In this document: in pieces, positions 9,310 to 46,328 of the stretch
How positions within the stretch are numbered: the first letter of the stretch is position 1
How the letters are laid out: each line of letters opens with the position of its first letter
Source: Abditibacteriota bacterium
GTDB lineage: Bacteria; Armatimonadota; UBA5829
Assembly: GCA_017445025.1 (NCBI GenBank)
Contig: JAFSVJ010000028.1
Location: 95,752-159,751 of the forward strand
Length of the DNA: 64,000 nucleotides
Direction: 5' to 3'
Position numbers and translations under genes: made by a program
The notes under the pieces: model-generated
What the model was told of the DNA's origin: nothing
Seen by the model: the letters and a program-made list of their open reading frames with translations, nothing else
Database searches by the model: none

Positions 9310-9434
9310 ATTTCACCTCTGTCAATTATATTATAATATAAAAACACATTAAAAAGCAATTTATTAAAAAATAGGTATAAACAAGTTTTTTCAAAAAAAT
9401 GAGTTTCAATAATATTTTATATATAAGATCTCCT

Positions 9435-9463: not shown

Positions 9464-9486
9464 ATAATTGATAAAGAAAAATCCAA

Positions 9487-9518
9487 ACAATTAATAGGTA
9501 TATACAAGTTAATTGTTT
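9487..9518. promoter_or_regulatory. Candidate operator palindrome AACAATTAA-TAGGTATATACAAG-TTAATTGTT between the -10 and the ribosome-binding site of pilin-like gene 2.
   Basis: 9-bp perfect arms; the centre contains the palindrome GTATATAC. Confidence 0.5.
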
Positions 9519-9546
9519 AGATTAAAAATTTAGGAGGAACATTACC

Positions 9547-10352: not shown

Positions 10353-11657
10353 ATGAAAATTTTACTGAACATATTCTTATTAGTTCTACTCACGGGAATG
10401 TTATTGGCTCAAAACAACAGTGCATATATATCAGATGTATATTCAAAACAAGTTCCTCACATAGATAAAAACGGGAATATCCTAACAAAATATGACGAAA
10501 AGAAATCCTTTTTCCCTATTGCAATGTGGGGAGTACCTACATCCGAGGAAGTCTATGGCAAAACCTATAATTGGAACATATTAAAAAAAGCGGGCTACAA
10601 TACAGTTTGGCCCTGGCCCTCAGAAAACAGAGTTGCACAGTTAGACAAAGGAGCTGAATATGGCTTTCAAGTTGTCCTTATGAACCCCATAAGCGACGAA
10701 TCCCTTCCCTTAATTAATAATCATCCTAATCTTTTGGGAAACTGTTGGAGAGACGAACCTATAGGTCAATTAGGCCCTAAAATGCAAAGTATTTTTGATG
10801 ATTTTACTCAATATAAAGATAAAGCCAAGAAATTAGCTCCAAAACTAAAAGTTTTTGTTAACGATGCACCTTGGATAACAGAACCCGCCACAGAATGGTG
10901 GATCAAGTGGAACAAGGCGGGAGACATCTCTTGTCACGATTCCTATCCTGTTTACAACAAAGACGGAGAAGCCGCAAGATCTTTGGGAACAGGCATCAAT
11001 ATGCCGGCATCTATGAACTTGGCTGTATCTTCTACCGATGAAAAAATGCCTGTTTGGCTTATAGTGGGAGCCTTTACCCAACCTAATGAATACGGTAACA
11101 GTTATCCTTTCAGACACCCTACCCCCAACCAACTTCGTTCCTGTGTTTATACAGCTATAGAACATGGTGCTACAGGAATAACCTACTTTATATGGGACAG
11201 CTATATTTCAAGAGAAGGTCAGTGTATAGGTATGTCACCGGATCCTCAAACAGATATGGGAAACGGAGATTCCAAATATGTAATAGCCAAGCCCATTGAT
11301 TTAATAAATGCAAAAGCTAATTGGGAAATGGCTACTCAAATCAACAGAGAACTTAAGGAACTTGCTCCTATCATCTTAACTCCCACTGATACAAAAACTC
11401 AGTTTACAGTTAAAATTACAGGAAAAGGGGTAACGGAGCAACCTATTCACTGTATGCTTAAAAAAGACCCGGAAGGTGGCTGGATACTCTTTACAACCAA
11501 TATAGACGCTTCTTTCTTAAAGGTGGAATATACTTTTATGACATCTATCACAGAAGCAAAGGCTTTGTATGAAAACCAAAAGCCTTTAACAGTTGAAAAC
11601 GATACATTTTCTCTGTCATACGAACCCTTTGAAACACATATAATAAAGATAAAATAA
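10353..11657 (+). CDS. Secreted protein; first of a tandem pair of paralogs. Possible TIM-barrel glycoside hydrolase ('GNCWRDEPIG', 'HGATGITYFIWDS').
   Basis: Signal peptide present. Roughly 45% identical to the product of 11902..13254. Possible NEP-like acid/base motif 'DEP'. Confidence 0.45.
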   Translation: MKILLNIFLLVLLTGMLLAQNNSAYISDVYSKQVPHIDKNGNILTKYDEKKSFFPIAMWGVPTSEEVYGKTYNWNILKKAGYNTVWPWPSENRVAQLDKGAEYGFQVVLMNPISDESLPLINNHPNLLGNCWRDEPIGQLGPKMQSIFDDFTQYKDKAKKLAPKLKVFVNDAPWITEPATEWWIKWNKAGDISCHDSYPVYNKDGEAARSLGTGINMPASMNLAVSSTDEKMPVWLIVGAFTQPNEYGNSYPFRHPTPNQLRSCVYTAIEHGATGITYFIWDSYISREGQCIGMSPDPQTDMGNGDSKYVIAKPIDLINAKANWEMATQINRELKELAPIILTPTDTKTQFTVKITGKGVTEQPIHCMLKKDPEGGWILFTTNIDASFLKVEYTFMTSITEAKALYENQKPLTVENDTFSLSYEPFETHIIKIK

Positions 11658-11816: not shown

Positions 11817-11901
11817 GATTTTACATTTTCTATTTTATATTTTCTATTTAAAAATAATTTTGTGATGACAAAGCATAAACAAAGAAATTCAAGGACAGAT
11901 T

Positions 11902-13254
11902 ATGAAAATACTACTTTATTTATTAATATTTTTAATCTCAGTTTCATCTATTTTAGCTGATGAATTTGAAACTTTGAGAAAAAATCAAAGAAATTTCAAC
12001 AGCATTCAGTTAATATATCAAGACGGTGTCCCTCACACAGACAAAACCGGCAACATTCTAATGGAATATGACAAAGAAAAATCTTTTTTTACCATTGCAG
12101 CTTGGGGTGTTCCTCTGCACGGTGAGCAATTGGGAGAGACTTATGACTGGCAACTCCTAAAAGACGCCGGATTTAACACTGTATGGCCCTATCCTATTTA
12201 CCCTATAGATAAACAGATAGAAGCTTTTGAGAAATTTGATATGCAAGGAATTATTTTACACCCTATAAATGATGAAGATTTGCTCAAAACCATAGGAAAC
12301 AGTCACATACTGGGTAATTGCTTTAAAGACGAGCCAATAGGCCTTGTAGGCTCATATTATGAAGATAATACGCCAAAATCAGATAAAATTTTTAAAGACT
12401 ATTTGGACTACAAAGCTCACGCTCAAGAAATCAATCCCAATCTAAAGATCTTTGTAAATGATTGCACCTGGAACACAGAACCAGCCACAAGTTGGTGGGT
12501 TAAGTGGAACACTGCAGGAGACATTCAATGTCAAGACGCCTATCCCATTACTTTGGATGAAGAAGGAGCTACAAGAACCTTAGCTCACAATAATATAGAC
12601 CTACCTAATTCGGTAGCTTGGGCTACAGCTATAAACAAAGAACAAAAACCTGTATGGCTTATTGTAGGTCCCTTCTCTCAAGTAGATAATTACGGTGGTG
12701 GTTCCTGTTTCAGGTGGCCTACTCCAAACCAACTCCGCTCTTGTGTTTATGCGGGAATTGAACACGGTGCAACAGGAATAATCTATTTTATATGGGACAG
12801 TTTCATATCAAGGGAAGGACGAGTTATAGGTATGAGCCCTAATCCTAAGGTTAAAATGGCTGAAGCAGATAAATATGTGGTAGCTAAGCCTCAAGACCTT
12901 GTAAACTCAAAAGCTATGTGGGAAACCACCAAACAGATAAACAAAGAGCTTAAGGAACTTGCTCCCTACATTCTGTCAAAAACTGTCAAAGAAAAAACTT
13001 ATAGTGTAAAGATAGAAGGCAAATTTATAAGCCCCAACGGTTTAAGATGTCTTCTAAAACAGGACGGAGAAGGTGGATATATTTTGTTTGCCACAAATAT
13101 AGACGCAGCTTGGCTACAAGCAGAATTTACTTTTGAAAAAGAGTTTTTATTAGCGGAAACCATGTTTGAAGACGGAAAGATTTTAGGCAAAGCCGACAAA
13201 GTCTTCAAAGCTGATTTTGACCCCTTTGAAACACATATAATACATATAAGATAA
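11902..13254 (+). CDS. Secreted protein; second of the tandem paralog pair. Possible glycoside hydrolase.
   Basis: 'GNCFKDEPIG', 'NQLRSCVYAGIEHGATGIIYFIWDS'; paralog of 10353..11657. Confidence 0.45.
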   Translation: MKILLYLLIFLISVSSILADEFETLRKNQRNFNSIQLIYQDGVPHTDKTGNILMEYDKEKSFFTIAAWGVPLHGEQLGETYDWQLLKDAGFNTVWPYPIYPIDKQIEAFEKFDMQGIILHPINDEDLLKTIGNSHILGNCFKDEPIGLVGSYYEDNTPKSDKIFKDYLDYKAHAQEINPNLKIFVNDCTWNTEPATSWWVKWNTAGDIQCQDAYPITLDEEGATRTLAHNNIDLPNSVAWATAINKEQKPVWLIVGPFSQVDNYGGGSCFRWPTPNQLRSCVYAGIEHGATGIIYFIWDSFISREGRVIGMSPNPKVKMAEADKYVVAKPQDLVNSKAMWETTKQINKELKELAPYILSKTVKEKTYSVKIEGKFISPNGLRCLLKQDGEGGYILFATNIDAAWLQAEFTFEKEFLLAETMFEDGKILGKADKVFKADFDPFETHIIHIR

Positions 13255-13295
13255 AGCAGAAAGCAGAAAATTAAATTTGCGTTGCAAATTTAAAA

Positions 13296-13362
13296 TCAAT
13301 AATCAAAAATCAAAATCGTGGTGCGACCCACCACGTGTTGTAATTTGTGATTTGTGATTTGG
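13296..13362. repeat. Short palindromic element: AATCAAAAATCAAAATC + a GTGGTGCGACCCACCAC hairpin + GATTTGTGATTTGTGATT.
   Basis: Same family as 18092..18166, 26442..26660, 39013..39060 and 46148..46312. Confidence 0.55.
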
Positions 13363-14689: not shown

Positions 14690-15240
14690 ATAAATGCACA
14701 ATATACCCCCCACGATGAAAAACTTTTTGTTTTTCATCGTTGCCCCCCTCGGGGGGCAAAAGGGTTTTCCCTTTAACTTTGGATATGTTTATAAATTTAC
14801 GCTCTTAATAATAAGAAAATTTCCCTTTACCTCCCTTTTTTCCTATGGCTCTTTTTGAGCAAATCCAAAATCTTGAGACTTATTTATAAACACCTTTTTT
14901 GGTAGTATATTTTATTCTCTGTCTTCGAATGTTCATAAAATACACCACCAAAAAAGATGTTATGTAATAGGCTTATCTAAATTTTAATTTCGTATTTGCT
15001 CAAATTCCAAGGGCTCCCGAAAAGTCGTAGCGTAGCAAGACTTTTTGGGAATGGAAAAATAACCATAACAAAAAAAGGGGCGTTCCTTAATTTAAAGGCT
15101 GGCTTCGGTTAATTGACTCTTTAATCACGGGAAATAAGAGCAAGAAGGGAAACTTGAGCCTCCTTTAAGTAGAATTCACACCTCTTGCAAATTCACATAA
15201 AAATAGAGCAAAACTATTCACAATATATTAGGTTATTATT

Positions 15241-16380: not shown

Positions 16381-16760
16381 AGCAGAAAATTAAAGCAAAA
16401 AGCAAAAAGTTAAATTTGCGATGGCAAATTTAAAAATATTAAAGCATAAAGCATAAAGCATAAAAAAGTGGAGCTAAGGCTCCACTTTGGTTTTGTGGTG
16501 CTTCGCACCACTTTTGTTAAGTGGCCTCTAAATTTTTTAGTGACGACTACAGAACATAGCTAAATAAAAAACTAAAATAAAAGGCTCCCATTTGGGAGCC
16601 ATTTTTATTTAGCGTAAACCAAATTCATATTTAGTCTGACATCCCCAACAATGCCTTTCATAAATAGTTGGTTCATCCCCCGGTCCTCTTTCTATCGGTA
16701 TAACTTTTATAGATTCCTTTGGTTCTTCATAAAGACAACCATCATGTGGACAATCAGAGA

Positions 16761-17015
16761 TTACATAACAATATGTGGAACATATTTTTCTATTTTACAA
16801 TTTACTGTTCTACTGGCTAACCTTTTATACTGTTCGTAAGCAACAGGATCCTTTAAATAATCACAACCTATAACACATCCACCTACTATCCCAGTAAATG
16901 CAAAAATTCCGAAAATTGCTGCTGCCACAATCCAATCTTTATCTATTCCAATACATGTTAAAATAAGAAAAACTATTCCAAAAACAATCATAATAATAAA
17001 ATCTAACATTATCAT
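16761..17015 (-). CDS. Small membrane protein (84 aa, two transmembrane segments).
   Basis: Strong ribosome-binding site AAGGAGG. A Cys-rich (CPHDGC…CWGC) reading frame with no start codon continues downstream at roughly 16640-16800. Confidence 0.5.
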   Translation of the reverse strand: MIMLDFIIMIVFGIVFLILTCIGIDKDWIVAAAIFGIFAFTGIVGGCVIGCDYLKDPVAYEQYKRLASRTVNCKIEKYVPHIVM

Positions 17016-17230
17016 TTTCCTCCTTACAATTTTAATTCATATTTTTTATTTATTTAACTTGCAATTTGAATTCACAGTTAAAATATATTTCATTTTTATT
17101 TATCACTATTATATTTCTTTATAGATATATAATACTCTGTAAAAAAATAATTCACAAAAAATACTAATCGTCATTTGAATAAAACTCACATTCCTTGACA
17201 ACAATAAAATGACGGAAAAATGTTTATTTA

Positions 17231-17440
17231 TTAATGCCAATGAATTATACAGAGATAATGTCTTCCACACCAATTACAAATAATATCTCTTCTTAATTTA
17301 GGATAATCGTCAGGATAAGATATATATTGTGAACGTAGATGTTTTTTGTGACAGTGAGGGCAAAATGTTGCAAAATGACCTGATTTGTATCTGTAATCTA
17401 AAATTTCGCAATTTTCAACTGCATAAGGTTCCTCAAGCAT
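17231..17440 (-). CDS. Small four-cysteine zinc-ribbon protein (69 aa).
   Basis: CxxC…CPHCH…CNWCGRHY. Ribosome-binding site AGGAGA. Paralog of 17711..17926. Confidence 0.55.
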   Translation of the reverse strand: MLEEPYAVENCEILDYRYKSGHFATFCPHCHKKHLRSQYISYPDDYPKLRRDIICNWCGRHYLCIIHWH

Positions 17441-17534
17441 ATTTTTCTCCTATCTTAGTTTGATAAAAATATCAACTGTCAAGATTTTCTTGACAGTTGA
17501 TACACAGTAAAAGTATTCTATGTATGGATATTAA

Positions 17535-17690
17535 TCAATTCTTCTTACATTAGAGATTTGAACTTCTACTGTTGCATATTCCGCAAATAAAAGTCTTCTT
17601 GCATTAGTTTCACTTGAAGCTGTATAAGTTTTAACTTGTATACCCGGAATACCTTTAACTCTATACCTAATCTCATAAGTATGCATAACA
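17535..17690 (-). CDS. Small protein (51 aa), not present in the ORF track.
   Basis: ATG preceded by GGAAGGTGA. Translation: MHTYEIRYRVKGIPGIQVKTYTASSETNARRLLFAEYATVEVQISNVRRID. Confidence 0.35.
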
Positions 17691-17710
17691 TTCACCTTCC
17701 TATAATTTTA

Positions 17711-17926
17711 TTATCGCCATTCGATATAAGCATGTATATGTTCATGACAATGAGAACAATTTACAGTTGGTCCACCATGTCCTAAATAAGTAAAAGGGTG
17801 TTTTGCTGACATTACACGACCGCATTTAGGGCATACTACAACAAGGTATCCATGTCTACCATCAAAGCTTACAATTTCGCAATTAATGCAAACAGGTTCT
17901 TTATCCATTATTTTTCTCCTTCGCAT
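17711..17926 (-). CDS. Small four-cysteine zinc-ribbon protein (71 aa).
   Basis: CINCEI…CPKCG…CSHCHEH. Ribosome-binding site AAGGAG. Confidence 0.55.
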   Translation of the reverse strand: MRRRKIMDKEPVCINCEIVSFDGRHGYLVVVCPKCGRVMSAKHPFTYLGHGGPTVNCSHCHEHIHAYIEWR

Positions 17927-18091
17927 ATTTCTATGCTTTAAAATTAGTTTTTATTGGTTAGAACAAGTAAAATTTCCTTACATAACCATATATATTATAC
18001 TCAAAAAAAAAAAAAACGCAAGTTTTAAGACATAAATGGTGAAAAAAATAAAAAAATTTCATTTCGGGGCAAATAAAAAGCAAAAATAGAT

Positions 18092-18166
18092 AATCAAAAA
18101 TCAAAGTCGTGGTGCTATGCACCACGTATTTCTGCTTTTTACTTTTATTTTTTGATTTGTGATTTA
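18092..18166. repeat. AATCAAAAATCAAAGTC + GTGGTGCTATGCACCAC hairpin + TTTGATTTGTGATTT element.
   Basis: Member of the family listed at 13296. Confidence 0.5.
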
Positions 18167-18244
18167 TGTAAAATTTATGGTATAATAAATATGGATTTGT
18201 AAATATAATATTGGGTGAATGTTACCTTTACTTCCAATAAAGGA

Positions 18245-19845
18245 TTTTTATAAAGAATCACCCCCCTAACGCAGTGCGACAACTGTTTTTTTTCGGACAA
18301 TTACATAAAGATTTGTTTAGTTAGTGGGTAAGACTTTAAATTTCGCGCCATAAGTGCTTTTTAGATTGTAGATTGTTGAACAAAAAAAGCCTTTTGTTTA
18401 CGGAAATCTAAAACCTTACGTAATCACTTTAGACATCAGTCTTTAATACCGAAATCGTTTAGGTTCTTTATCATTATTATGACTAAAACAGAAATTTATC
18501 TCCGGAATTTCCATTTCTGTTCCTTCATAATACTTTGAATACATTTGGAATGTAGTCATATTAGTGTTTGTATATTTTCGTTCATAATTATAATAATGCA
18601 TCCATTCTTCTATTCCTTTATTGAACACTTCAAGTGTTTCAAACTGGCGTTGATTATAAAACTCATCTCTAAGAACGTGATAAAATTGTTCAATAAAGGG
18701 ATTATCTGTGCTTTTATAGGGACGGCTGTGACTTTGCTTTAAACCTAATTTCTCTAAATAATTATGAAAGCCATAAGTGCGATATATTCCCGCTCTATCT
18801 GAATGAAATATACCATCGGTGATCTTAAAAGGTAAAGCTTTTTCTAATAGTTTTAGGGTTTCATTTGCCAGATCGGAATTTTCATGAAATGAAGTGTGAA
18901 AACATATTATCATACGGGAATAATAATCCATAACACAAGATACTTTTATTATGCCAAAGCTATATTCCAACTTAATAACATCGGTGCAAAAGTATCTTAA
19001 AGGTTCATTTGCTCTAAAACCTGTTTTAATTAATCGTTCACATGCCGGCATCCTATCTTTTGTTAAGGATTTATTCTTGCAGCGACTCTCTTTTTTGGTT
19101 AAAAGCAGTCCTTCTTTTTTGGCAATTTTATAGACCTTTTCTTTATAAGTTTTAATACCATAGTCTTCGTAAAGAATAGAAACTAAAGCTTTGCAACCAC
19201 GATATATCTTTCTACGTTCTCGTATATCATGTAAAGCTAAACGAATCTTTTCGTCAATCGGATCTTGTGGCTTTTCCTCTTTAGGCTTATCGTTATCATA
19301 AAAGGTAGAACTTGGTATTTTAGTATGTTTAAACAACATTGTTTTTGTAAAAAATTCTTGATATAAATTGACTATAAAAACCTTAACATCATTTTTTATC
19401 TTTGTCTTTTTTTTTTCAAGAACATTAAATGCTGTGTTAACACAAAGCTCACAATCTAAATCTTTTATGATTTCAATTAATTCTTTTTGGGATTTATTTT
19501 CTAATTGTTTAAGATCAATGGGTTTTCTAAATTCAGCTTCATTTTTCTTTTTTTCTTTGTTAAAAAAGCTCATTGGACCTTTATCCTTATATTGACTAAC
19601 CCAAGAACGAATTGTTTTTCCGCCAGGCTTAGTTTGATTGGGAAGCAATTTTCTTGCAGTTTGCTTAAATGAAAGAAAATGCTCTCTCATATATATTATA
19701 GCATATATTTTGTATTCTGGCGAATAATAAGCCCTCTTTTGTGGCTTTTTTGAGATTTTGCTATCCATTAATTTTCCTCCTATTTGTCCGAAAATTAACA
19801 GATAGCACACGCAGTAGGGGGGGGACTGATTGTCAATCATAGCCA
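18245..19845 (-). mobile_element. Insertion sequence (~1.6 kb) with ~40-bp imperfect terminal inverted repeats (TTGTCCGAAAA..CAG…GC..TAGGGGGG.TGATT) at 18250-18310 and 19780-19840.
   Basis: The inverted repeats were found by comparing the reverse complement of the left end with the right end. A transposase ORF lies between them. Confidence 0.65.
18443..19768 (-). CDS. DDE transposase with an rve/integrase core (IS3/IS481 superfamily), encoded as a single ORF.
   Basis: 'HSDRAGIY' and 'SRPYKSTDNPFIEQFY' match the rve catalytic-core signatures (HSDRG…, SR.G…DNA..E). N-terminal helix-turn-helix. Start placed at the internal 'MDSKISKK' so that the CDS lies inside the right inverted repeat. Confidence 0.75.
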   Translation of the reverse strand: MDSKISKKPQKRAYYSPEYKIYAIIYMREHFLSFKQTARKLLPNQTKPGGKTIRSWVSQYKDKGPMSFFNKEKKKNEAEFRKPIDLKQLENKSQKELIEIIKDLDCELCVNTAFNVLEKKKTKIKNDVKVFIVNLYQEFFTKTMLFKHTKIPSSTFYDNDKPKEEKPQDPIDEKIRLALHDIRERRKIYRGCKALVSILYEDYGIKTYKEKVYKIAKKEGLLLTKKESRCKNKSLTKDRMPACERLIKTGFRANEPLRYFCTDVIKLEYSFGIIKVSCVMDYYSRMIICFHTSFHENSDLANETLKLLEKALPFKITDGIFHSDRAGIYRTYGFHNYLEKLGLKQSHSRPYKSTDNPFIEQFYHVLRDEFYNQRQFETLEVFNKGIEEWMHYYNYERKYTNTNMTTFQMYSKYYEGTEMEIPEINFCFSHNNDKEPKRFRY

Positions 19846-19884
19846 AGTATAAACTTTGGATGCCCGACAAACTTTAAATTCCAT

Positions 19885-23305: not shown

Positions 23306-24067
23306 ATGACAGCACTCATAACAGGAGCCTCTGATGGTATAGGCAAAGCATTTGCTTATGAACTGGCAAAAAAACAATATAATTTAATACTCATTGCAAG
23401 AAGAGAAGAATTGTTATCAAAAATAAAATCTTCTCTTGAAAAAGAATATAACATTTCAGTCAATTATTATTCTCTCGATTTGACCACTCAGATAAATGAA
23501 TTTTGCCAAATCATAAGAGATAACAAGCCGGACATCCTTATCAATTCCGCAGGCTTCGGAAGACCCGGGCTTTTTGTGGATTTGGACTTTGCCTGTCACG
23601 CAGAAATGCTCTCAGTCCATATTGAAGCTGTTGTGAAGAGCAATTATGAAGCCTTAAAATATATGAGAGAAAAGAAAGAAGGCATGATTATAAATATCTC
23701 ATCTCTTGCCGGACTGATTTTAGGAAAAGGCTACACTATGTATGGCTCCACCAAACATTTTATAGCAGATTTCTCTCAAAGATTGGCTTTTGAGGCAAGA
23801 AAAGATAATGTCTATATTCAAGCTCTCTGCCCCGGCTTCACATATACAGGATTTCACGACACAGAATATTACCCCCATTTCGACAGAAGCAAATATCCCA
23901 AATTTCTTTGGCAAAGTCCGGAGTCTGTGACACAAGAAAGTCTTAAAAAATATAAAACTCCCCTACTAATTCCAAGGACACTTAACAGATTTATCTATAT
24001 TTTAAGTCAAACTCTTCTTTTTAAATACATAATTGCCAAAATAATGAAAAGTAGCAAATTTGTATAA
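23306..24067 (+). CDS. Short-chain dehydrogenase/reductase (SDR) family oxidoreductase
   Basis: 'TGASDGIGKAFA' Rossmann motif. Confidence 0.75.
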   Translation: MTALITGASDGIGKAFAYELAKKQYNLILIARREELLSKIKSSLEKEYNISVNYYSLDLTTQINEFCQIIRDNKPDILINSAGFGRPGLFVDLDFACHAEMLSVHIEAVVKSNYEALKYMREKKEGMIINISSLAGLILGKGYTMYGSTKHFIADFSQRLAFEARKDNVYIQALCPGFTYTGFHDTEYYPHFDRSKYPKFLWQSPESVTQESLKKYKTPLLIPRTLNRFIYILSQTLLFKYIIAKIMKSSKFV

Positions 24068-24082
24068 TCTCGGCATTTATCT

Positions 24083-25186
24083 ATGACAATCAAACCCAAA
24101 AAAATATATGAAATAACCGTTCCACCTTCAAAATCCTATCTTCACAGAGCGTTGATAGGAGCTTTTTTGTGTAAAGACAAATGTCATATAAAAAATATAT
24201 ATCATTCTCAAGATATTGACACAACAATAAAAGCTCTTGAAAGTCTGAATAAAAATGATATAATAAACTGCAATGAATGTGCTTCAACACTCAGGTTTTT
24301 GATACCCCTTTCTCTTGTCATAAACAGCAAAGGAGCTTTTTGTTTTGAGGAAAGCTTGGGCAAACGTCCTCTTGAAGAATATTTAAACATATTTGACACA
24401 AAAGGTATAAAATACTCTAAAAATAAAGATAATTTAGTAGTTCAAGGAAATCTTAAACCGGAAATTTATAATATTCAAGGCAATGTTTCCAGCCAATTTT
24501 TGACAGGTTTGTTATTGGCTTTACCACTCCTTAAAGGCAACAGTGAAGTTCACATAGAAAAAGAGCTTCAATCAAAGCCATATACAGACATTACTATTGA
24601 TATACTGAAAGATTTTGGTATTGAAATTGAAAACCAAAACTACCAAATTTTCAAAATCAAAGGAAACCAAGAATATAAATGCAAGGAATACGCATGTGAG
24701 GGAGATTGGTCCACGGGGGCTTTTTGGTATTTGCTATCTCAAAAATTTAATATAAAAATAAATAATTTAAATATGGATTCAATTCAGCCGGACGCTGTGG
24801 TGACTAAAATCACCCCACATTTGCCGGAAATTTTTGATGCCAAGGACACTCCTGACTTAGTGCCTCTCCTTGTTGCTTATGCCATAGGCACACACCAAGA
24901 AATAAAAATCACAGACTGTGAAAGATTAAAATATGAAGAAAGCAACAGGCTTTTGGCTTTAAAAGAATTTGAAAAAACAGGTGGAAAAATTAAAATTGAT
25001 GACAATTCAATAATTATTAATAAATCTCAATCGTTAAATAGTGGATTTTTAAACAGTTTTCACGACCACAGAATTGTTATGGCTTATGCTCTTTTTTCTT
25101 TCTTAACAAACACAGAATTAGAAACAGACGATATTGAATGTCTTAAAAAATCCTATCCGGAATTGATAGATATAATAAAAGGTTAA
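24083..25186 (+). CDS. aroA: 3-phosphoshikimate 1-carboxyvinyltransferase (EPSP synthase), short form
   Basis: 'ITVPPSKSYLHRALIGAFL' EPSP-synthase N-terminal signature. Adjacent to aroC. Confidence 0.75.
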   Translation: MTIKPKKIYEITVPPSKSYLHRALIGAFLCKDKCHIKNIYHSQDIDTTIKALESLNKNDIINCNECASTLRFLIPLSLVINSKGAFCFEESLGKRPLEEYLNIFDTKGIKYSKNKDNLVVQGNLKPEIYNIQGNVSSQFLTGLLLALPLLKGNSEVHIEKELQSKPYTDITIDILKDFGIEIENQNYQIFKIKGNQEYKCKEYACEGDWSTGAFWYLLSQKFNIKINNLNMDSIQPDAVVTKITPHLPEIFDAKDTPDLVPLLVAYAIGTHQEIKITDCERLKYEESNRLLALKEFEKTGGKIKIDDNSIIINKSQSLNSGFLNSFHDHRIVMAYALFSFLTNTELETDDIECLKKSYPELIDIIKG

Positions 25187-25190
25187 AAAA

Positions 25191-26246
25191 ATGAGTTTTA
25201 CAACAGGTAATAAATATAAAATCACCCTTTTCGGCACTTCTCACGGAGATTGTATAGGTTGCACTATTGAAGGTATTCCCGAAGGCTTAGAAATAGACTT
25301 TGAGAAAATTGACACAGAAATGAAAAGGCGAAAACCTCAGGGAACACTAACCACAAAAAGAAAAGAAACAGATAATTATGATATAATTTCCGGAGTATTG
25401 GATGAAATATGTGACGGAAGCCCTTTGACCTGTGTCATTCCAAACACAGATGCCATTTTTTCAGATTACAACAAAGATATCCCACGACCGGGACACGCTG
25501 ACTATGCAGCAAATATAAAATACAATGGTTACAACGATTACAGAGGAGGAGGCTTCTTCTCCGGGAGAATGACCGCTCCCTTGGTATTTGCGGGAGCTGT
25601 AGCCAAACAGATTTTAGAGAAAAAAGGCATTTATGTTTACAGTCATATTCTGTCTGTAAAGGATTCCAAAGAAGCATCTTTCAGTGACCTGGACTGTAAT
25701 ACAATAATTAACAGACTGAGAGAAATAAAAACATATCCTTTCCCCTGCTTAGAAAAAGAAAAAGAATTCATAAACATAATAAAAGAAAACTCCCCCGATA
25801 GCGTGGGGGGAGTGTGTGAAATAATGGTTTTGGGTGTTCCCGTAGGGGTTGGAGAGCCATTTTTTGACAGTATAGAAAGCACCCTGTCAAAACTCTTCTT
25901 CTCAGTGCCGGGAATAAAAGGGGTTGAATTTGGAGATGGATTTAAAATCACAGAATTGACCGGTTCCGTAGCCAATGACTGCCCTCATTATATTAAGGAC
26001 GAAATAACATTCCTGTCAAATCACTCGGGAGGAATAAACGGAGGCCTTGCCAACGGAATGCCCATAATTTGCAGAGTTGCGGTCCGCCCCACTCCTTCTG
26101 TATCAATAGAACAAGAAACCGTGGATTTAGAGAAAGGTGAAAACACCAAAATCACTGTCCACGGAAGACACGACAGAGCAATTATCCTTCGCATTGCCCC
26201 GGTTATGGAAGCCGTCACAGCCATGGGGATTTTGGATTTACTGTAA
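25191..26246 (+). CDS. aroC: Chorismate synthase
   Basis: 'GTSHGDCIGCTIEGIPEGL…RRKPQ' and 'RHDRAI'-type motifs. Confidence 0.85.
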   Translation: MSFTTGNKYKITLFGTSHGDCIGCTIEGIPEGLEIDFEKIDTEMKRRKPQGTLTTKRKETDNYDIISGVLDEICDGSPLTCVIPNTDAIFSDYNKDIPRPGHADYAANIKYNGYNDYRGGGFFSGRMTAPLVFAGAVAKQILEKKGIYVYSHILSVKDSKEASFSDLDCNTIINRLREIKTYPFPCLEKEKEFINIIKENSPDSVGGVCEIMVLGVPVGVGEPFFDSIESTLSKLFFSVPGIKGVEFGDGFKITELTGSVANDCPHYIKDEITFLSNHSGGINGGLANGMPIICRVAVRPTPSVSIEQETVDLEKGENTKITVHGRHDRAIILRIAPVMEAVTAMGILDLL

Positions 26247-26441
26247 ATTCAGCCCCCCCACTATGTAAGGGGTTGAATTGCAGCAATCTCGGGGTCCCCA
26301 AAAAGCCCTGCGAATAGCGAAAACAACCCAAGGGATCCCGAAAAGTCGTAGCATAGCAAGACTTTTTGGGAATGGGTTTTAGGGGTGAGAAATAAGCATC
26401 GCTTTTTTGTAAAAACGCCCAAGGCACCCCGTCATTATTAT

Positions 26442-26660
26442 AATCAAAAATAGAAAATCAAAAATCAAAATTGAAAGTGCTAACCTTTAAGAGCAACTGA
26501 AAAGTTAAGAGCCGGCTAATTGGATTATTAATTATTAATTTTAAAAATAGGGGGCGAACCGGCGTGCAAATTTAAAAAGGCGTCTATAAAGCTTAGAGCC
26601 CACCAACATAAGTGGTGCGTAGCACCACGAATTTTGATTTTCTATTTTTGATTTTTGATT
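26442..26660. mobile_element. MITE-like element with ~30-bp terminal inverted repeats (AATCAAAAATAGAAAATCAAAAATCAAAATT / AATTTTGATTTTCTATTTTTGATTTTTGATT) enclosing ~155 bp that includes a GTGGTGCGTAGCACCAC hairpin. The right inverted repeat overlaps the last codons of hydE.
   Basis: Inverted repeats verified by reverse complement. The internal segment 'GCTAACCTTTAAGAGCAACTGAAAAGTTAAGAGCCG' is shared with 46240-46275. Confidence 0.6.
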
Positions 26661-27685
26661 ATATTTCTTGCGTGGCCTTGATCTATAGATACTTGACGAT
26701 TGCAAGAAATTATAAGATCTTTAATTGTAGATAAGATTGTATCCGTGTTTTCGGAGATACACTTTTTTCCGGGGTAAATTTCATATAATATCTTATACTT
26801 TTGAGGAGTAAAGTTAATCATAATAACATCACATCCCACGCTCAAACCTTTCTTATAACCTTCATTACCTATGGTTGCAAGGGCTGTGGTTGCAGGCATA
26901 AGAGCGGTTTTTGTTATTATTCTCACCAGTGCCAACATTTTAAGAGTCAAAAAAACATCTCCGTTAGGCTCACCCTTAAAAGGTGTATGTTCATGCATAA
27001 CATAAGGACCTATTCCCACCATTTCAGGTTTGAAATCTCTTATAAACTCCAAATCTTCAGCCAAATATTCTGTCTTCTGTCCCGGAGAGCCCACCATACA
27101 CCCTACCCCGGTTTGATAACCTAATTTTTTTAAATTTCTCAAACATTCAAGCCTTGTGTCCAAAACTCCGTCAGGGTGCAAATATTTATAATGTTCCTTG
27201 TTGGCGGTTTCATGTCTCAACAGATACCTGTTAGCTCCGGCCTCTTTCCAAAGCTTATAAGTTTCAAAAGAATGTTCCCCAAGGCTTAAAGTCACAGCCA
27301 TATCAGTGTTAGATTTTATTTCCCTTATTAAATCTGCCAAATCAAAAGGATTATAGGTCTTGCTTTCCCCACCTTGCATAACTAAGGTTTTTACACCTTT
27401 TTTATCCATATCAAGAGCAATTGAATATATCTCCTCTATGGGCATTTTATACCTTTGAACAAGATCATTATTTGCCCTTACACCGCAATAATTACAATTA
27501 CGAGCACATATATTGCTTATTTCCAACAAACCTCTTATTTGAACCTTTTCACCACAATAATCCTTTCTTATTTTATCGGAAAGACTAAATAAAGAAACAG
27601 CCTCATCCGAATTTAAAGACAAGGCCTCTATTAAGTCATTTTTGGTATAATTATTTGATTTTATTTTATTTAGTAAATTATTCAT
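26642..27685 (-). CDS. hydE: Radical SAM protein of the BioB/HydE type, likely the [FeFe]-hydrogenase maturase HydE.
   Basis: 'CARNCNYCGVRANND' radical-SAM Cx3Cx2C motif. About 350 aa. Adjacent to a HydG-like gene. Confidence 0.55.
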   Translation of the reverse strand: MNNLLNKIKSNNYTKNDLIEALSLNSDEAVSLFSLSDKIRKDYCGEKVQIRGLLEISNICARNCNYCGVRANNDLVQRYKMPIEEIYSIALDMDKKGVKTLVMQGGESKTYNPFDLADLIREIKSNTDMAVTLSLGEHSFETYKLWKEAGANRYLLRHETANKEHYKYLHPDGVLDTRLECLRNLKKLGYQTGVGCMVGSPGQKTEYLAEDLEFIRDFKPEMVGIGPYVMHEHTPFKGEPNGDVFLTLKMLALVRIITKTALMPATTALATIGNEGYKKGLSVGCDVIMINFTPQKYKILYEIYPGKKCISENTDTILSTIKDLIISCNRQVSIDQGHARNIIKNQK

Positions 27686-28023
27686 TGGAATGATTATTAT
27701 TTCCTTATAAATCCAAGAGAACTTATTCTAAATCTTGTAAAGCCAACTGTAAACCTTAATTGCTCCTATACTAAGTAGGGCAAAAGTTAGTAGACTTTTT
27801 GGGATTTACAAAACTGCTTCACCCTCTTTGAACTGAATTTGCTTTCGCAAATTCATTTCAAGGAGGGGGACCACAAGGCGTAAGCCATTGTGGTGGGTGG
27901 TCAGGAATAAATTTGCATAGAATTGCAAATTTATGATAGAAGCATAATAATATAACAGAGCAACCACATTTGAAGACGGTGGGTGGTCAGGAGTAAAAAT
28001 AGCTAAACTGCAAATTTTACGAT

Positions 28024-29415
28024 TTATATATATTGATCTTTTTCGCCTTTATCTATGTTGGCGATAAGTTCTTTCACTTTTGATTTCATATTCTCCGGTA
28101 AGGTTTCCACATATTTATTGATTACCACATTTGCTTTTGCTTTCACTTCGTCACTTGCAAAATCGTGAAGATATTCTCTGAAAGAAAGAAGTGCATTGGG
28201 AAGACACATTTCGTGGATATCCCCTTCCTTTGCGTGTTTCATAAAAGTTTCACCGGTTCTTCCTCTTCTATAGCAAGCAGTGCAGAAAGATGGTATAAAT
28301 TCATCATTTAATAGAACATCTATTATTTGCGCCAAGGTTCTTTGGTCTGAAAGTTGAAATTGGTCTTTACTCTCCACCAAACCTTCTTCTTTTGAATACT
28401 CTCCCGGTCCCACTCTTGAACCCGCAGAAATTTGACTTACACCCAAGTTAATAAGTTCGTTTCTAAATTCTGCTCTCTCTCTTGTGGAAAGAATAATACC
28501 TGTATAAGGCACAGCCACTCTGAATACAGAAACTATCTTTCTCATTATATCTTCATTTACAGGATAAGGAATATTCTCTGCCACAGGGGCGTTTTGAGCA
28601 GGCTCAAGTCTTGGGACAGATATGGTATGAGGACCTATGTTGTATAAAGCATTTAAGTGTTCACAGTGTTGTAAAGTTGCCAAAGTTTCAAATCTGAAAT
28701 CATACAAGCCATACAAAGGACCTATTCCCACATCGTCAATACCCGCTTCAATTGCTCTGTCCGGTGCTAAAAGTCTGTTTGCCATATCTCTCTTAGGACC
28801 GGAAACATGGTATTTCATATAACTGTCATAGTGATAGGTTTCTTGGAAAACTTGATAGGTTCCTATTCCACACTGTTTCAACCGTTTAAAATCTTCTCCA
28901 CTCAAAGGTGCACAGTTTACGTTAACTCTTCTTATGCCCACACCATTATATCTTGCTTTGTAAATGGCTGCCACTGCTTTTTCAAGATATTCTATTCCTG
29001 AGTATTTGGGATGCTCTCCCGCAACCAACAATACTCTCTTGTGTCCCTCTCTCAAAAGGAAAAGTGTTTCATTTTCTATTTCTTCCGGAGATTGGCAAAT
29101 TCTCTTAAGATCCTTGTTTCCCGTTCTGAAAGCACAGTATAAACAGTTGTTTGCACATATATTGGATACATACATAGGTGCAAAAAACACTATTCTCTTT
29201 CCATAGATTTGCTCTTTAATATATCCTGCTATTTCGTATAATTTCTCAAGTAAACCTTTATCCGTCAATTGAAGAAGACAGGCTGCCTCTTCAATGGTTA
29301 TTCCTTTACATTCTTTTGCCTTTGCAAGTATATCATTGATATGCTCTTTACTTAAATCCGCATTGTCCAATGCATTAAAGATTTGCTCTTCATTCACAAA
29401 AGCATTATCTTTCAT
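28024..29415 (-). CDS. hydG: Radical SAM protein of the ThiH/HydG family, likely the [FeFe]-hydrogenase maturase HydG.
   Basis: 'CANNCLYCAFRTGN'. Length 463 aa with an extra C-terminal Cys motif (CTACYRRGRTGE). Confidence 0.55.
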   Translation of the reverse strand: MKDNAFVNEEQIFNALDNADLSKEHINDILAKAKECKGITIEEAACLLQLTDKGLLEKLYEIAGYIKEQIYGKRIVFFAPMYVSNICANNCLYCAFRTGNKDLKRICQSPEEIENETLFLLREGHKRVLLVAGEHPKYSGIEYLEKAVAAIYKARYNGVGIRRVNVNCAPLSGEDFKRLKQCGIGTYQVFQETYHYDSYMKYHVSGPKRDMANRLLAPDRAIEAGIDDVGIGPLYGLYDFRFETLATLQHCEHLNALYNIGPHTISVPRLEPAQNAPVAENIPYPVNEDIMRKIVSVFRVAVPYTGIILSTRERAEFRNELINLGVSQISAGSRVGPGEYSKEEGLVESKDQFQLSDQRTLAQIIDVLLNDEFIPSFCTACYRRGRTGETFMKHAKEGDIHEMCLPNALLSFREYLHDFASDEVKAKANVVINKYVETLPENMKSKVKELIANIDKGEKDQYI

Positions 29416-38581: not shown

Positions 38582-38689
38582 TAAATAACCTTATAATATA
38601 ATTCTTAACATATCCATGTAAAAGTTTGGGAAAGGGCACTTGTTATTTACCATTTTTAAATAGATTTGCTACGCAAATCATTTTTCTTC

Positions 38690-38960
38690 TTATTATCGCA
38701 AAATCGTTCCGCACCCCCCGCCGTTTTTGACAGTTTTCCTACGGAAAACACCAAAAACGACTACAGGGTGGGGGGTCTATAAAGGGCTCCCGAAAAGTCG
38801 TAAGACTTTTTGGGAATAATGCCCTATGGGGATGGGGGCCCGACTTCGGGGCTACCCCCCTCCGGCTCCCCCCTATATGCCTTCTAGTATAGGCTGGTCA
38901 ACAGAATTTTACCCCCATAGGGGGGGAGAGAGTGGTGCTCCTACATTACCATTTCCCTTG
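38690..38960. repeat. GC-rich, G/C-run-rich repeat mosaic inserted between yidD and yidC (CCCCCC/GGGGGG runs and a CCCGAAAAGTCGTAAGACTTTTTGGG hairpin).
   Basis: Composition clearly differs from the AT-rich background. It contains copies of the hairpin families seen elsewhere in the window. Confidence 0.5.
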
Positions 38961-39088
38961 ACTAAAGTATCTATCCACCATAGCCCACCTTAAAAATTAG
39001 GGCCCGGTAACCTAAGTGGTGCGAACCACCACAAGTTTGATTTTCTATTTTTTGATTATTGATTTTAAATTTGCCATTGGCAAATTTA

Positions 39089-39316
39089 TTATTTCACGGG
39101 GTCATCTCCCCCTTTTGACCATGGGTTGCAACGAATTATTCGCCATATTCCCAATAAAGAGCCTTTAAGAACTCCATATTTTTCAATAGCTTGAGCCGTA
39201 TATTCGGAACAAGTGGGATGAAAACGACAAGTTGGTGGCAAAAACTTTCTTGAAAAAGGTTGATAACATCGTCTTATAAGAAAAAGACAAAATTTCTTAA
39301 TCACCTGTGACCCCAT
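39089..39316 (-). CDS. yidD: Membrane protein insertion efficiency factor YidD
   Basis: '[19 protein letters not shown]…[16 protein letters not shown]'. Confidence 0.85.
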
Positions 39317-41889: not shown

Positions 41890-42546
41890 ATGAAAAATAT
41901 TATTATAATGCCTTCAATTTTAAGTGCGGATTTCAGCATAATGAAGGAACAATTAAATGATGTAAAGCAAGCAGGAGCAGACGCTATTCACTGCGACATT
42001 ATGGACGGACATTTTGTGCCTAACATAACTTTCGGACCGGGATTTATAGAAGCTTGTGCAAAGGTATGCGACTTGCCTTTTTATGTACACCTTATGATTG
42101 AAAATCCTGATCAATACTTGGCAGCCTTTGCCAAACCGAAAAATGTAGTTGAAATAGGAGTTCACGAAGAAGCTTGTGTTCATCTCCACAGAACCGTTCA
42201 AAACATAAAAGCCCTTGGCAAGAGAGCTTGTGTGGCTCTTAACCCCCACACTCCCGCCTCTAATTTGGATTATATTCTTGATGACCTTGACGCTGTTTTG
42301 GTTATGACAGTAAACCCGGGCTTCGGTGGTCAAAAGTTCATAGAATCACAGCTCCGTAAAATAGAAGAAATCCGTAAGGAAGCGGACAGGCGAGGACTGG
42401 ACCTGGACATTCAAGTAGACGGTGGTGTGGACGGTATCACCAGCAAGAAAATTGCTGTCGCCGGTGCCAATATGTTTGTGGCAGGCTCCTATGTCTTTAC
42501 CAACAAAACTCTGTCTATGAAAGAAGCCATTAAAAGTTTGAGATAA
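41890..42546 (+). CDS. rpe: Ribulose-phosphate 3-epimerase
   Basis: 'MPSILSADFSIMKEQLNDVKQAGADAIHCDIMDGHFVPNITFGP'. Confidence 0.9.
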   Translation: MKNIIIMPSILSADFSIMKEQLNDVKQAGADAIHCDIMDGHFVPNITFGPGFIEACAKVCDLPFYVHLMIENPDQYLAAFAKPKNVVEIGVHEEACVHLHRTVQNIKALGKRACVALNPHTPASNLDYILDDLDAVLVMTVNPGFGGQKFIESQLRKIEEIRKEADRRGLDLDIQVDGGVDGITSKKIAVAGANMFVAGSYVFTNKTLSMKEAIKSLR

Positions 42547-42548
42547 AA

Positions 42549-42923: not shown

Positions 42924-42925
42924 CC

Positions 42926-46130: not shown

Positions 46131-46147
46131 ATTATAATCAAATACAG

Positions 46148-46312
46148 AAAATCAAAAATCAAGAATTCCATTCCCCGGTCACTCCAAATCCCAAAAGTTG
46201 AGTTTACGAAACTATTAAGGATTTAGGGTTAAGGGGACAGATGCTAACTTTAAAGATCAACTCTAAAGTTTAGAGCCGATTTTTGATTATTGATTATTAA
46301 TTATTGATTTTT
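46148..46312. repeat. Composite repeat: AATCAAAAATCAAG-ended element carrying a divergent copy of the C/G-clamped element (46173-46239).
   Basis: Shares 'CTAACTTTAAAGATCAACTCTAAAGTTTAGAGCCG' with 26477-26510, and its ends match 13296. Confidence 0.5.
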
Positions 46313-46328
46313 AAAAACGAGGTGAAAT

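Follow-up and report, generated by a model that had tools for sequence, protein, structure and literature searches.

Cyanobacterial intergenic DNA reportedly carries tandem repeats of heptamers (STRR), as described by Mazel et al. in 1990. Intergenic heptamer repeats are also found in the Beggiatoaceae and in some Bacteroidetes (PMC4679880). Other short bacterial repeats are palindromic. The pneumococcal SPRITE elements, reported in 2011, appear in a summary of that work (PMC3184786) as dispersed repeats of ~100 nt with a predicted structure similar to an intrinsic terminator. The REP/BIME sequences of E. coli and the REPINs of Pseudomonas have proposed roles in termination and mRNA stabilisation (PMC3116915, PMC3733652), and the tetranucleotide that identifies their palindromes, GTAG or CGTC, is located at the foot (PMC3733652). 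Rickettsia palindromic elements (RPE; Ogata et al. 2000), as outlined in PMC3184786, are located in frame within genes and add 35-50 internal residues to the encoded proteins.

The intergenic DNA of the uncultured Abditibacteriota genome considered here is colonised by lineage-specific short modular repeats, which represent an ordinary kind of bacterial repeat. Our analysis is centred on a window of 64,000 nucleotides (the whole stretch of DNA analysed) that includes hydE. Like SPRITE, the family lies preferentially at gene 3' ends and between convergent genes, and repeats of this type can extend the 3' ends of open reading frames. It has no sequence relationship to SPRITE, occurs in a different phylum and, unlike SPRITE, is modular, with swappable stems, flanking heptamer tracts and a hairpin-less derivative. 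The similarity to STRR lies in the 7-nt periodicity of intergenic DNA, the presence of several heptamer units and the variation in unit number between strains. However, the units are different (AATCAAA, TTGTGAT, AAAGCAG and others, compared with TAACTGA, CCCCAGT and others; PMC4679880), and the tracts in this phylum, the Abditibacteriota, flank hairpins at gene 3' ends rather than lying upstream of start codons.

Composition of the repeat family

Members of the family are assembled from a small set of parts. A GC-rich stem of 7 bp, usually GTGGTGC/GCACCAC, encloses a loop of 3-5 nt and is bordered on one side by a tandem AATCAAA/TTTGATT heptamer tract. The other side carries either another heptamer tract or a conserved module of ~35 nt (…TTTAGAGCCCnCCAAC…), the latter making the ~100-nt family that we term E2, of which the window and other metagenomes together contain more than 12 copies. 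A second form, E1, is a hairpin-less derivative of this hairpin-and-heptamer family. When at most one mismatch is allowed, the motif AATCAAAAATCAAAA has nine matches in the window (13294/13301+, 18092+, 18150-, 26456+, 26646-, 39050-, 46150+ and 46281-), compared with 0.14 expected from shuffled sequences. Five copies of the hairpin GTGGTG-N4-8-CACCAC are present (at 13318, 16495, 18109, 26612 and 39016) and four of the composite AATCAAA-N2-5-hairpin, where none is expected in either case. Each of the five copies cited in the original prediction has AATCAAAAATCAAAA at or within it, and the motif statistics establish the dispersed family as real.

The hairpin itself is less uniform than had been predicted. 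It is lacking from the copy at 46148-46312 although present in the others, and the stem described as GTGGTGC/GCACCAC of 7-8 bp is an exact 7-bp match in only three copies, those at 13318 and 39016 having 6 bp and a C·C mismatch. The hairpin at 16495-16511, previously considered to stand alone, belongs to an E2-like copy in reverse orientation (16472..16549, minus strand), which scores 60.7 bits in the covariance model and is located between convergent genes amid other hairpins and (TAAAGCA)n heptamers. On the other hand GGTGGGTGGTCAGG, which had been assigned to the hairpin family as a variant, is a separate repeat with three copies (27891, 27977 and 59144), in which the GTGG forms part of a different stem, CCACAA…TTGTGG.

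Two plus-strand copies have the simple arrangement with heptamers on both sides of the stem. Copy A (13286..13362) comprises (AATCAAA)n, the hairpin GTGGTGCGACCCACCAC (13318-13334) and (TTGTGAT)n, and lies 63 nt past the stop codon of the gene at 11902..13254; its variant hairpin and upstream flank recur at a non-orthologous locus in L136. Copy B (18071..18170) has A-rich heptamers, the hairpin CGTGGTGC-TAT-GCACCACG (18108-18126; -13 kcal/mol) and T-rich heptamers; it adjoins an insertion sequence and is the top match of the terminator-like scan on both strands. The E2 copies C (26561..26663) and D (38977..39072) are likewise on the plus strand. Copy C gives an alignment of ~100 nt with at least six copies from the window and other metagenomes (83.5 bits), and consists of the left module (…GGCGTCTATAAAGCTTAGAGCCCACCAACATAA), the hairpin GTGGTGC-GTA-GCACCAC (26612-26628; -11.3 kcal/mol) and a (TTTGATT)n tract at 26630-26663. 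Copy D (78.9 bits; hairpin at 39016-39032) shares 77 nt with copy C at 74% identity and is embedded in a repeat mosaic of 715 nt between rnpA and yidC.

The covariance model, R1, finds at least 20 copies in the DNA of this lineage, of which ~160 kb was covered, and no matches in the repeat-free relatives L020-L023, L145 and L148, where the motifs are also absent. Around 10 further true copies are present on unrelated metagenome contigs that have only repeat modules in common with the window. These were recovered by a pattern search of metagenomes that returned 120 loci, the true members being L047, L050, L054, L074, L086, L088, L090, L096 and L136; approximately 110 of the 120 are chance matches to unrelated terminators or to coding sequence for His-His. 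L078, with four copies, was rejected as an unrelated tandem gene/terminator repeat on a contig of 29% GC. Searches of Rfam (gathering threshold and E <= 1), of plasmids and phages by BLAST and of viral contigs gave no true match, the sole viral-contig hit (L149) being attributable to chance.

Pairing of the E2 hairpin has been kept through compensatory changes in the stem. In otherwise homologous contexts the stem is GTGGTGC/GCACCAC, GTCGAAC/GTTCGAC or GTGGGAC/GTCCCAC; compensatory changes affect three of the seven stem pairs, pairing holds in 98.7% of cells and none of 500 shuffles reached the covariation score, although the variants represent just two to three independent events. The loops vary freely. 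The heptamer tracts are part of a more general periodicity: exact 6-mers recur at a lag of 7 at 9.1 per 1000 intergenic positions, compared with ~1 at lags of 6 and 8 and 0.8 in coding DNA, and we found ~26 period-7 arrays with units that include AATCAAA, TTGTGAT, AAAGCAG, TAAAGCA and ATTTTCT. The tracts also change in length, since L086 and L088 carry alleles that are ~99% identical but differ by one heptamer unit in each tract.

A conserved stem with a variable loop, in a short GC-rich extragenic palindrome that is present in many copies and combined with other short motifs in mosaic intergenic blocks, is reminiscent of E. coli BIMEs, and the hairpins might on this basis be recognised and spread by a RAYT, an IS200/IS605-like Y1 transposase. 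We consider this distinctly unlikely. The stems have no conserved GTAG or CGTC tag at their foot, the flanks being AAATC, AAGTC, AAATT or CATAA within A/T-rich heptamers, and GTAG is seen only in some of the loops. There are no inverted doublets, the only doublet observed (L050, 242/295) being in direct orientation. No RAYT is seen among the 40 window proteins scanned against Pfam, none of which has a Y1_Tnp domain, and hydE, hydG and the genes at 23306-26246 have other identities.

The composite unit and the 3' end of hydE

The sequence at 26442-26660 was initially described as a single element with terminal inverted repeats of ~30 bp around a core of 155 bp. Inverted arms are indeed present (26439-26482 and 26620-26663; 44 nt, 82% complementary), but they lie 137 nt apart and do not appear to bound one element. 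The region consists of an E1 and an E2 copy side by side, each of which occurs separately elsewhere, and the outer AATCAAA tracts of the two modules are in opposed orientation, which gives the appearance of terminal inverted repeats. The E1 short copy (26439..26547, plus strand) combines an arm of A-rich heptamers, AATCAAA/AATAGAA (26439-26472), with a module that forms an AT-rich hairpin, GCTAAC…GAGCCG (26478-26517), and with a T-rich tract of ATTATTA; a weak match to the E2 model lies within it (26488-26545). It is related to the E1 long copy at 46133..46316 (plus strand), which lacks the GC hairpin. The copies were compared pairwise; a MAFFT alignment placed the left arms incorrectly. The left arm is 91% identical to 46133-46164, and 26478-26547 is 77% identical to 46242-46316, a sequence also found in L144. 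Of the 137-nt core, only ~70-75 nt is shared with this second locus. RNA folds of the whole elements give z scores of -3.4 and -5.5, which derive solely from pairing of the complementary heptamer arms.

The right arm overlaps hydE (26642..27685, minus strand), which encodes an [FeFe]-hydrogenase radical-SAM maturase; its homologues are named HydE, and the T. maritima HydE structures are matched with E = 3e-90. The reading frame ends …GHARNIIKNQK*, and its last seven codons (N I I K N Q K) and TAG stop, at 26642..26665, derive from the A-rich strand of the heptamer tract in E2. The arm holds the TAG (26642-26644) and the codons K Q N K I I, while the Asn codon straddles its edge. The sequence and the table of reading frames thus bear out the proposal that the repeat supplies the 3' end of hydE, namely the last six to seven codons and the stop. 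L018, an independent assembly of the same strain (99.95% identical), encodes an identical HydE of 347 residues, which shows that the tail is not an assembly artefact. The two closest orthologues (86% and 82% identical), which end …GNARK* (P0001) and …GHAR* (P0002), are six to seven residues shorter and have no tail. In L019 and L020, nucleotide homology with the window extends no further than 26662, at the edge of the repeat, and the repeat sequence that forms the 3' end of hydE recurs at more than 10 loci that have no relation to this gene. A search of genome contigs with HydE gave only distant homologues of at most 45% identity.

The tail AATATAATCAAAAATCAAAAATAG therefore has a repeat origin. 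It might alternatively be ancestral and resemble the repeat through a coincidence of A+T-rich sequence, given that 347 residues is a normal length for HydE and that two other proteins, P0012 (…RKIKNQ*) and P0010 (…RKIKK*), have similar endings without repeats. The original prediction had named such an ending in a distant relative as evidence against repeat capture, and at the protein level P0012 (59% identical, no repeat nearby) in part provides one. The corresponding DNA from L021, however, scores 26 against the tail, compared with 25.4 ± 3.0 for shuffled sequences, indicating that the likeness of the endings is compositional. As the tail DNA is continuous with the hairpin in a repeat of 77-100 nt that is present at many other loci, and as both closest orthologues lack the tail and homology stops at the repeat edge, we regard an ancestral tail as very improbable.

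With repeat origin as the reading adopted, the tail may have arisen when an E2 copy came to lie directly at the end of hydE through an insertion or a rearrangement that eliminated the original stop codon. The A-rich strand of (AATCAAA)n contains no stop codon in any frame, so that translation would run on for around seven Lys, Asn, Ile or Gln codons; a variant unit, AATAGAA, supplies the TAG at which the hydE frame stops, 13 nt short of the hairpin. Excision of the repeat in silico, with or without a TA duplication, did not produce an in-frame stop. Downstream of hydE, synteny with all three relatives is broken, and repeat modules are again present to the left of E1. With a breakpoint and no true empty site, insertion and rearrangement are indistinguishable for this copy. 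RPEs also provide codons to protein-coding genes from a palindromic repeat, although in hydE the contribution is only a C-terminal tail of six to seven residues and a stop codon. The suggestion that this tail has been co-opted is not borne out: HydE proteins differ in both length and sequence beyond GH(A/S)R, and the sequence of the T. maritima HydE structure (348 residues) aligns only up to query residue 342. Judged from these alignments, the tail looks to be an incidental by-product.

Gain and loss of repeats between relatives

Filled and empty sites are seen at several gene junctions. The ribBA-ribH junction is 198 nt long in the window and in L144 but only 10 nt in L145, from which E1 is absent; in the window the E1 long copy extends from 3 nt past the ribBA stop codon to the ribosome-binding site of ribH. 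Between hydG and hydE the window contains a block of 338 nt (27686..28023, no strand assigned) composed of other repeat modules, including two GGTGGGTGGTCAGG units. This block is absent in relatives, the two genes overlapping at TAATG in L020 and lying 12 nt apart in L021. The DUF805-IUNH junction is 210 nt compared with 11 nt in L144; further junctions also differ between the window and L144, and intergenic regions elsewhere have undergone complete turnover. An 83-nt duplication of the 5' end of ribBA flanks one repeat block.

Bacterial MITEs (Correia elements, Nezha and RUP; PMC3184786) are comparable in size range, in apparent terminal inverted repeats, in having filled and empty sites and in occasional fusion to open reading frames. 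According to this precedent, 26439-26663 would be a single element, mobilised in trans by an insertion sequence transposase and inserted at a TA in the region of the hydE stop codon. The length of 225 nt, the 44-nt arms noted above, a TA dinucleotide that can be read on both sides and the presence in the window of an insertion sequence with an rve transposase (18443..19870) are all compatible with this scenario, yet it appears unlikely. The unit splits into E1 and E2, which are found apart, and the putative terminal repeats are tandem heptamer tracts with a variable number of units. The TA belongs to a conserved TATAATC end and would be expected by chance in DNA of 65% A+T. Target duplication is not consistently observed: none is visible at ribBA-ribH when the filled site in the window is compared with the empty site in L145, and the 83-nt duplication is unlike the product of staggered cuts by a transposase. 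The rve enzyme is the only transposase in the window, and the ends of its element (18261-18303 and 19781-19823) are unrelated to the TATAATCAAAAAT-type repeat ends, leaving no matching insertion sequence in the window.

Between the window and L144, the E1 copies at ribBA-ribH are identical at 196 of 198 positions, whereas the genes on either side are far more diverged (ribBA 84.8% and ribH 87.4% identical, with only 63-69% identity at third codon positions). This conservation, and the compensatory changes that maintain the E2 hairpin, could signify that E1 and E2 are not selfish or neutral repeats but structured or cis-regulatory RNAs, for example in 3' untranslated regions or as intercistronic regulators, on which purifying selection is strong. 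Such a role seems improbable, since E1 copies within the genome are only 77-91% alike, relatives with 91-93% identical RibH have no E1 at all, intergenic sequence elsewhere shows complete turnover between these same two genomes, and Rfam provides no match. Moreover, identity along the region is a mosaic (71-96% per gene), which fits recombination tracts.

We infer that recombination or transfer of insertion alleles, combined with replication slippage, are the leading candidates for the spread of these repeats, in preference to a dedicated transposase. A more speculative proposal, to which we give little weight, is that the cassettes spread without a transposase by an undescribed mechanism, such as template switching or slippage-driven heptamer synthesis coupled to insertion at 3' ends, and that the insertion alleles then move between diverged lineages. 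It is hinted at by the 99% identity of E1 between genomes whose flanking genes differ by 13-15%, by the 83-nt ribBA duplication and by the swapping of stems within an otherwise conserved module.

Placement and predicted termination

The distribution of the repeats is biased with respect to gene orientation. Twelve of 17 hairpins lie 9-120 nt past a stop codon and none of the 17 falls between divergent genes. Where an intergenic region includes the 3' end of a gene, repeat coverage is 33%, compared with ~3% for divergent regions and 2% for coding controls. The description of almost every intergenic region as a mosaic holds in that 25 of 29 regions longer than 100 nt contain some repeat, but it overstates their extent: repeats account for only 27% of intergenic bases, which is a lower bound, and are nearly absent from divergent regions. 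On both strands, stems of 7-8 bp (-8 to -13 kcal/mol) are followed within 9 nt by 4-6 U; the copies were flagged by the terminator scan, and a metagenomic member (L054, 2448) has the form of a textbook terminator, A9-GGTGGTGCC-loop-GGCACCACC-T9, adjoining heptamers. The copy within the rib operon, E1, is the one without the GC hairpin.

By analogy with SPRITE and REP/BIME, the family is probably a dispersed, bidirectional terminator-like cassette that is lineage-specific, modular and works in a comparable manner. A hairpin preceded by A-rich and followed by T-rich sequence could act as a Rho-independent terminator in both directions, or as an RNA stem at transcript 3' ends; we infer this activity from predicted structure and placement. 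Against termination, the U-tracts are interrupted (4-6 of 9), the tail on the hydE strand is just UUAUGUUGG, and several copies are inside usual operons (rnpA-yidC), which a strong terminator would be expected to split. Selection against insertion into promoters could alternatively explain the bias towards 3' ends.

While knowledge of HydE itself is unchanged, the family is a clear-cut case of a dispersed repeat with the shape of a terminator, in a phylum that has received little study. The compensatory stem variants and the natural hairpin-less derivative in an operon lead to the prediction that copies with a hairpin terminate transcription and those without do not. Annotators of this lineage should expect short C-terminal tails rich in Lys, Asn and Ile and truncated pseudo-ORFs made by repeats, operon junctions that differ between close relatives, and assembly breaks at the modules, within which many related contigs end. 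The intergenic 7-nt periodicity extends the puzzle of heptamer repeats beyond the cyanobacteria, Beggiatoaceae and Bacteroidetes and, if spread without a transposase proves to be true, the lineage would be a tractable non-cyanobacterial model for the long-unexplained phenomenon of STRRs and small dispersed repeats.

Two repeat modules between aroC and hydE

The repeats were found in a 395-nt spacer between the convergent genes aroC (25191-26246, + strand, chorismate synthase family) and hydE (26642-27685, - strand, E = 3e-90 against the T. maritima HydE structures); hydG (28024-29415, - strand) lies upstream of hydE. The window has a G+C content of 34.5%, and among named HydE homologues the closest come from Armatimonadota MAGs. 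The original prediction of a dispersed, hairpin-bearing repeat family is borne out by motif counts far above expectation. In the window, AATCAAAAATCAAAA (at most one mismatch) has nine matches against 0.14 expected, GTGGTG-N4-8-CACCAC has five against 0, and the composite of heptamer tract (tandem AATCAAA/TTTGATT units) and hairpin has four against 0.

The prediction had treated 26442-26660 as a single palindromic element, but other copies divide 26439-26663 into two modules, E1 and E2. The apparent long-range inverted repeat (arms 26439-26482 and 26620-26663, 44 nt, 82% complementary) results from the opposed orientation of two heptamer arms, the left one of E1 and the right one of E2. E2 (26561-26663) consists of a left module (…CCATAGCC/GGCGTC-N-TTAAAAnTTAGAGCCCnCCAAC-N4), a 7-bp stem with a 3-nt loop, and (TTTGATT)n. 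Alignable copies lie at 38977-39072 and in L047, L050, L054, L074 and L090. A covariance model built from 12 E2 copies recovers them at 55-88 bits, matches L074 981 (53 bits) and L054 1326 (45 bits) outside the training set, and also finds simple heptamer-hairpin-heptamer copies at 13295 and 18086. E1 (26439-26547) combines an AT-rich hairpin (GCTAAC…GAGCCG) with an A-rich heptamer arm on one side and a T-rich tract on the other; a longer form of it lies at 46133-46316. The 3' part of E1 matches the E2 model weakly and reads like E2 minus the GC hairpin (TTTAGAGCC-G-ATTTTTGATT versus TTTAGAGCCCACCAACATAA-[hairpin]-AATTTTGATT).

Several details of the first description need amendment. The GC hairpin assigned to the 46148-46312 copy is absent there, and GGTGGGTGGTCAGG, taken as a form of the GTGGTG hairpin, is a separate repeat with three copies. 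The hairpin at 16495, described as solitary, sits in reverse orientation within a module recognised by the covariance model. Stems were given as 7-8 bp, but two hairpins have stems of 6 bp. Sequence is indeed shared with the region around 46240-46275, but the supposed 155-bp core is an inter-arm region of 137 nt, with some 70-75 nt common to 46242-46316.

A cluster of small ORFs (16761-17926, minus strand), two of which (17231-17440 and 17711-17926) contain CxxC…CxxC motifs, separates a repeat-rich spacer from an IS and may be a mobile or phage-derived module. The IS (18261-19823) encodes an rve-type (DDE) transposase (18443-19870, - strand) and has 43-nt imperfect terminal inverted repeats beginning C7/G7, which have no relation to the AATCAAA repeats.

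The repeat-derived end of hydE

The claim that the right arm encodes the end of HydE (…GHARNIIKNQK*) holds: the arm contains the TAG stop (26642-26644) and the six codons before it, and the seventh straddles its edge. The tail-coding sequence is continuous into the hairpin and is part of a 77-100 nt unit that recurs at many other loci. A second assembly of the same strain (99.95% identical) encodes the same protein, whereas its two nearest orthologues stop earlier, P0001 (86% identical, 341 aa) with …GNARK* and P0002 (82% identical, 340 aa) with …GHAR*. The DNA encoding these two (L019 and L020) can be aligned to the window only up to 26662, and the outer edge of the repeat is 26663. Downstream of hydE, synteny breaks off in all three relatives, and the E2 copy may have arrived by insertion or by rearrangement.

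A distant HydE with the same ending and no repeat had been named as evidence against capture. The orthologue P0012 (59% identical) has a similar protein end, …RKIKNQ*, with no repeats nearby, but its DNA-level match to the tail is at chance (score 26 against 25.4 ± 3.0 for shuffled sequence) and is thus a product of A+T-rich codon usage. Read on its A-rich strand, (AATCAAA)n is free of stop codons in all frames, while on the other strand TGA occurs in each of them; an ORF that enters the tract on the A-rich side thus gains a Lys/Asn/Gln/Ile/Ser tail, which continues until a variant AATAGAA unit supplies TAG. A second example is provided by a duplicate of the ribBA 5' end (83 nt, 44611-44693), which reads into an AATCACA tract and ends there.

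The proposal that the repeat had been "co-opted" is right on the origin of the tail but overstated, as there is no sign of a new function in a region that varies across HydE. The tail is repeat-derived but of ordinary length: 0 to ~20 residues follow GH(A/S)R in HydE proteins, and the alignment with T. maritima HydE (348 aa) extends no further than query residue 342.

Hairpin conservation and a predicted role at 3' ends

Stems in the E2 context include GTGGTGC/GCACCAC, GTCGAAC/GTTCGAC and GTGGGAC/GTCCCAC, with GTCAAAC/GTTCGAC as a further variant containing one mismatch. Three of the seven stem pairs show compensatory double changes, 98.7% of cells pair, no shuffle matches the observed covariation score, and the loops vary freely among copies. 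Stem energies range from -8 down to -13 kcal/mol, and on both strands 4-6 of the next 9 nt are U; these stems are the top matches of a terminator-pattern scan, and one relative (L054 2448) has a perfect A9-stem-T9 version. Of the 17 hairpins, 12 follow a stop codon at a distance of 9-120 nt, and the copy within the riboflavin operon is E1, which lacks the GC hairpin. Because of these compensatory stems, energies and U tracts, the 3'-end placement and the hairpin-less operon copy, we favour a role as a bidirectional intrinsic terminator or 3'-stem, albeit with imperfect U-tracts.

One candidate from the pattern search was discarded: four near-identical AAAAAATCAAAAAAGGTGGTGTAAATCACCACCTTTTTT copies spaced ~2-3 kb apart (L078 7347-14663) are a chance match to the search pattern. 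L078 is an unrelated metagenome contig (29% GC) in which tandemly repeated gene units have a common terminator.

Distribution, spread and relation to known repeats

Dispersed repeats occupy at least 27% of intergenic bases, compared with 2% of coding controls. The five divergent intergenic regions contain only 57 nt of repeat in 2109, whereas other intergenic regions are 33% covered. The window also has three paralogous divergent gene pairs (2318-4376, 8269-10242 and 56921-58945), each comprising a GntR-family regulator and a prepilin-type N-methyl/DUF1559 protein; the first two share 70-83% nucleotide identity. Exact 6-mers recur at lag 7 in intergenic DNA at 9.1 per 1000 positions (for example at 13253-13269, 16392-16464, 11818-11849 and 1929-1982), whereas the rates are ~1 per 1000 at lag 6 or 8 and 0.8 for coding sequence, and there are ~26 period-7 arrays with differing units (AAAGCAG, TAAAGCA, TTGTGAT, ATTTTCT, ATTATGC and others). 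Two tandem paralogous genes (10353-11657 and 11902-13254) share 70-74% nucleotide identity over 95-226-nt segments and have no Pfam match.

Other modules are interspersed with this family. One, a distinct hairpin module of high copy number, CCCGAAAAGTC-loop-GACTTTTTGGGA (15007-15054, 26328-26375, 38782-38817, 59248-59299, 2083-2144 and 60943-60978), supplies 11-mers that occur 6-8 times each, more often than any other non-trivial word in the window; it is also found in L050 and L144. The genes rnpA and yidC normally form a tight operon; here they are separated by a 715-nt mosaic (38582-39296) that includes an E2 copy, C6/G6 runs and a CCCGAAAAGTC…GACTTTTTGGG hairpin.

The repeat families occur in L019 and L144, and in several metagenome contigs whose similarity to the window is confined to repeats; they are absent from L020-L023 (HydE 59-82% identical) and from L145 and L148 (RibH 91-93% identical); searches of Rfam, plasmids, phages and viral contigs gave no match. 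The hydG-hydE interval is a 338-nt mosaic of other repeat modules in the window (27686-28023), an overlap (TAATG) in L020 and 12 nt in L021; L019 bears one of the mosaic modules in opposite orientation. The riboflavin genes ribD, ribE, ribBA and ribH span 41890-46787, with ribH at 46329-46787; no FMN riboswitch was detected anywhere in the window (Rfam, gathering threshold). In L145 the ribBA-ribH interval is 10 nt long (stop, ribosome-binding site, ATG); it measures 198 nt both in the window and in L144, and L146 and L147 have different fillers there. The window and L144 also differ in length by 480 nt between ribH and DUF805 and by 187 nt between DUF805 and IUNH, and in two ~99% identical alleles (L086 and L088) the heptamer tracts differ by whole units. 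One variant hairpin with its flank (GTGGTGCGACCCACCAC) recurs at non-orthologous loci (window 13318 and L136 1281), which suggests that it was copied and did not arise by convergence.

E1 at ribBA-ribH is identical at 196 of 198 positions between the window and L144, within a low-divergence tract (~46110-46344 and L144 2535-2770), while identity on its flanks falls to 84.8% for ribBA and 87.4% for ribH (63-69% at third codon positions). Such near-identity could point to very strong constraint on E1 as an alternative to recent transfer. Per-gene identity along the region ranges from 71% to 96%, however, which makes recent allele transfer the simplest reading: an insertion allele would lately have been transferred by homologous recombination.

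Neither a consistent target duplication around the repeats nor a transposase with ends matching them was found in the window. An 83-nt direct duplication (44611-44693 and 44910-44992, 96% identical) of the ribE-stop/ribBA-start region flanks a 216-nt block of repeat modules, its upstream copy being a truncated ribBA start; this is unusually long for a "target duplication".

The nearest analogue, functionally and architecturally, is SPRITE, followed by REP/BIME mosaics and MITEs. REP/REPINs are defined by a GTAG/CGTC tag (PMC3733652); the window family has neither this tag nor inverted doublets, and no RAYT was found in a Pfam scan of 40 window proteins. The comparison with MITEs is mixed. Filled and empty sites are MITE-like; the complementary arms could pass for terminal inverted repeats but belong to two modules, TA can be read at both ends of 26439-26663 but within a conserved end sequence, and no parent IS was found in the window. 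The family has both the structure and the positions that a terminator-like repeat should show, although activity is only predicted. The 7-nt periodicity, an STRR-like trait in Abditibacteriota, resembles the heptamer repeats of cyanobacteria, Beggiatoa and Bacteroidetes (PMC4679880). Repeats that fuse with or lengthen gene 3' ends are already on record (PMC3184786). The repeat family is real, lineage-specific and modular, of a general kind already known, and the hydE tail is a genuine, though probably inconsequential, capture of repeat sequence.
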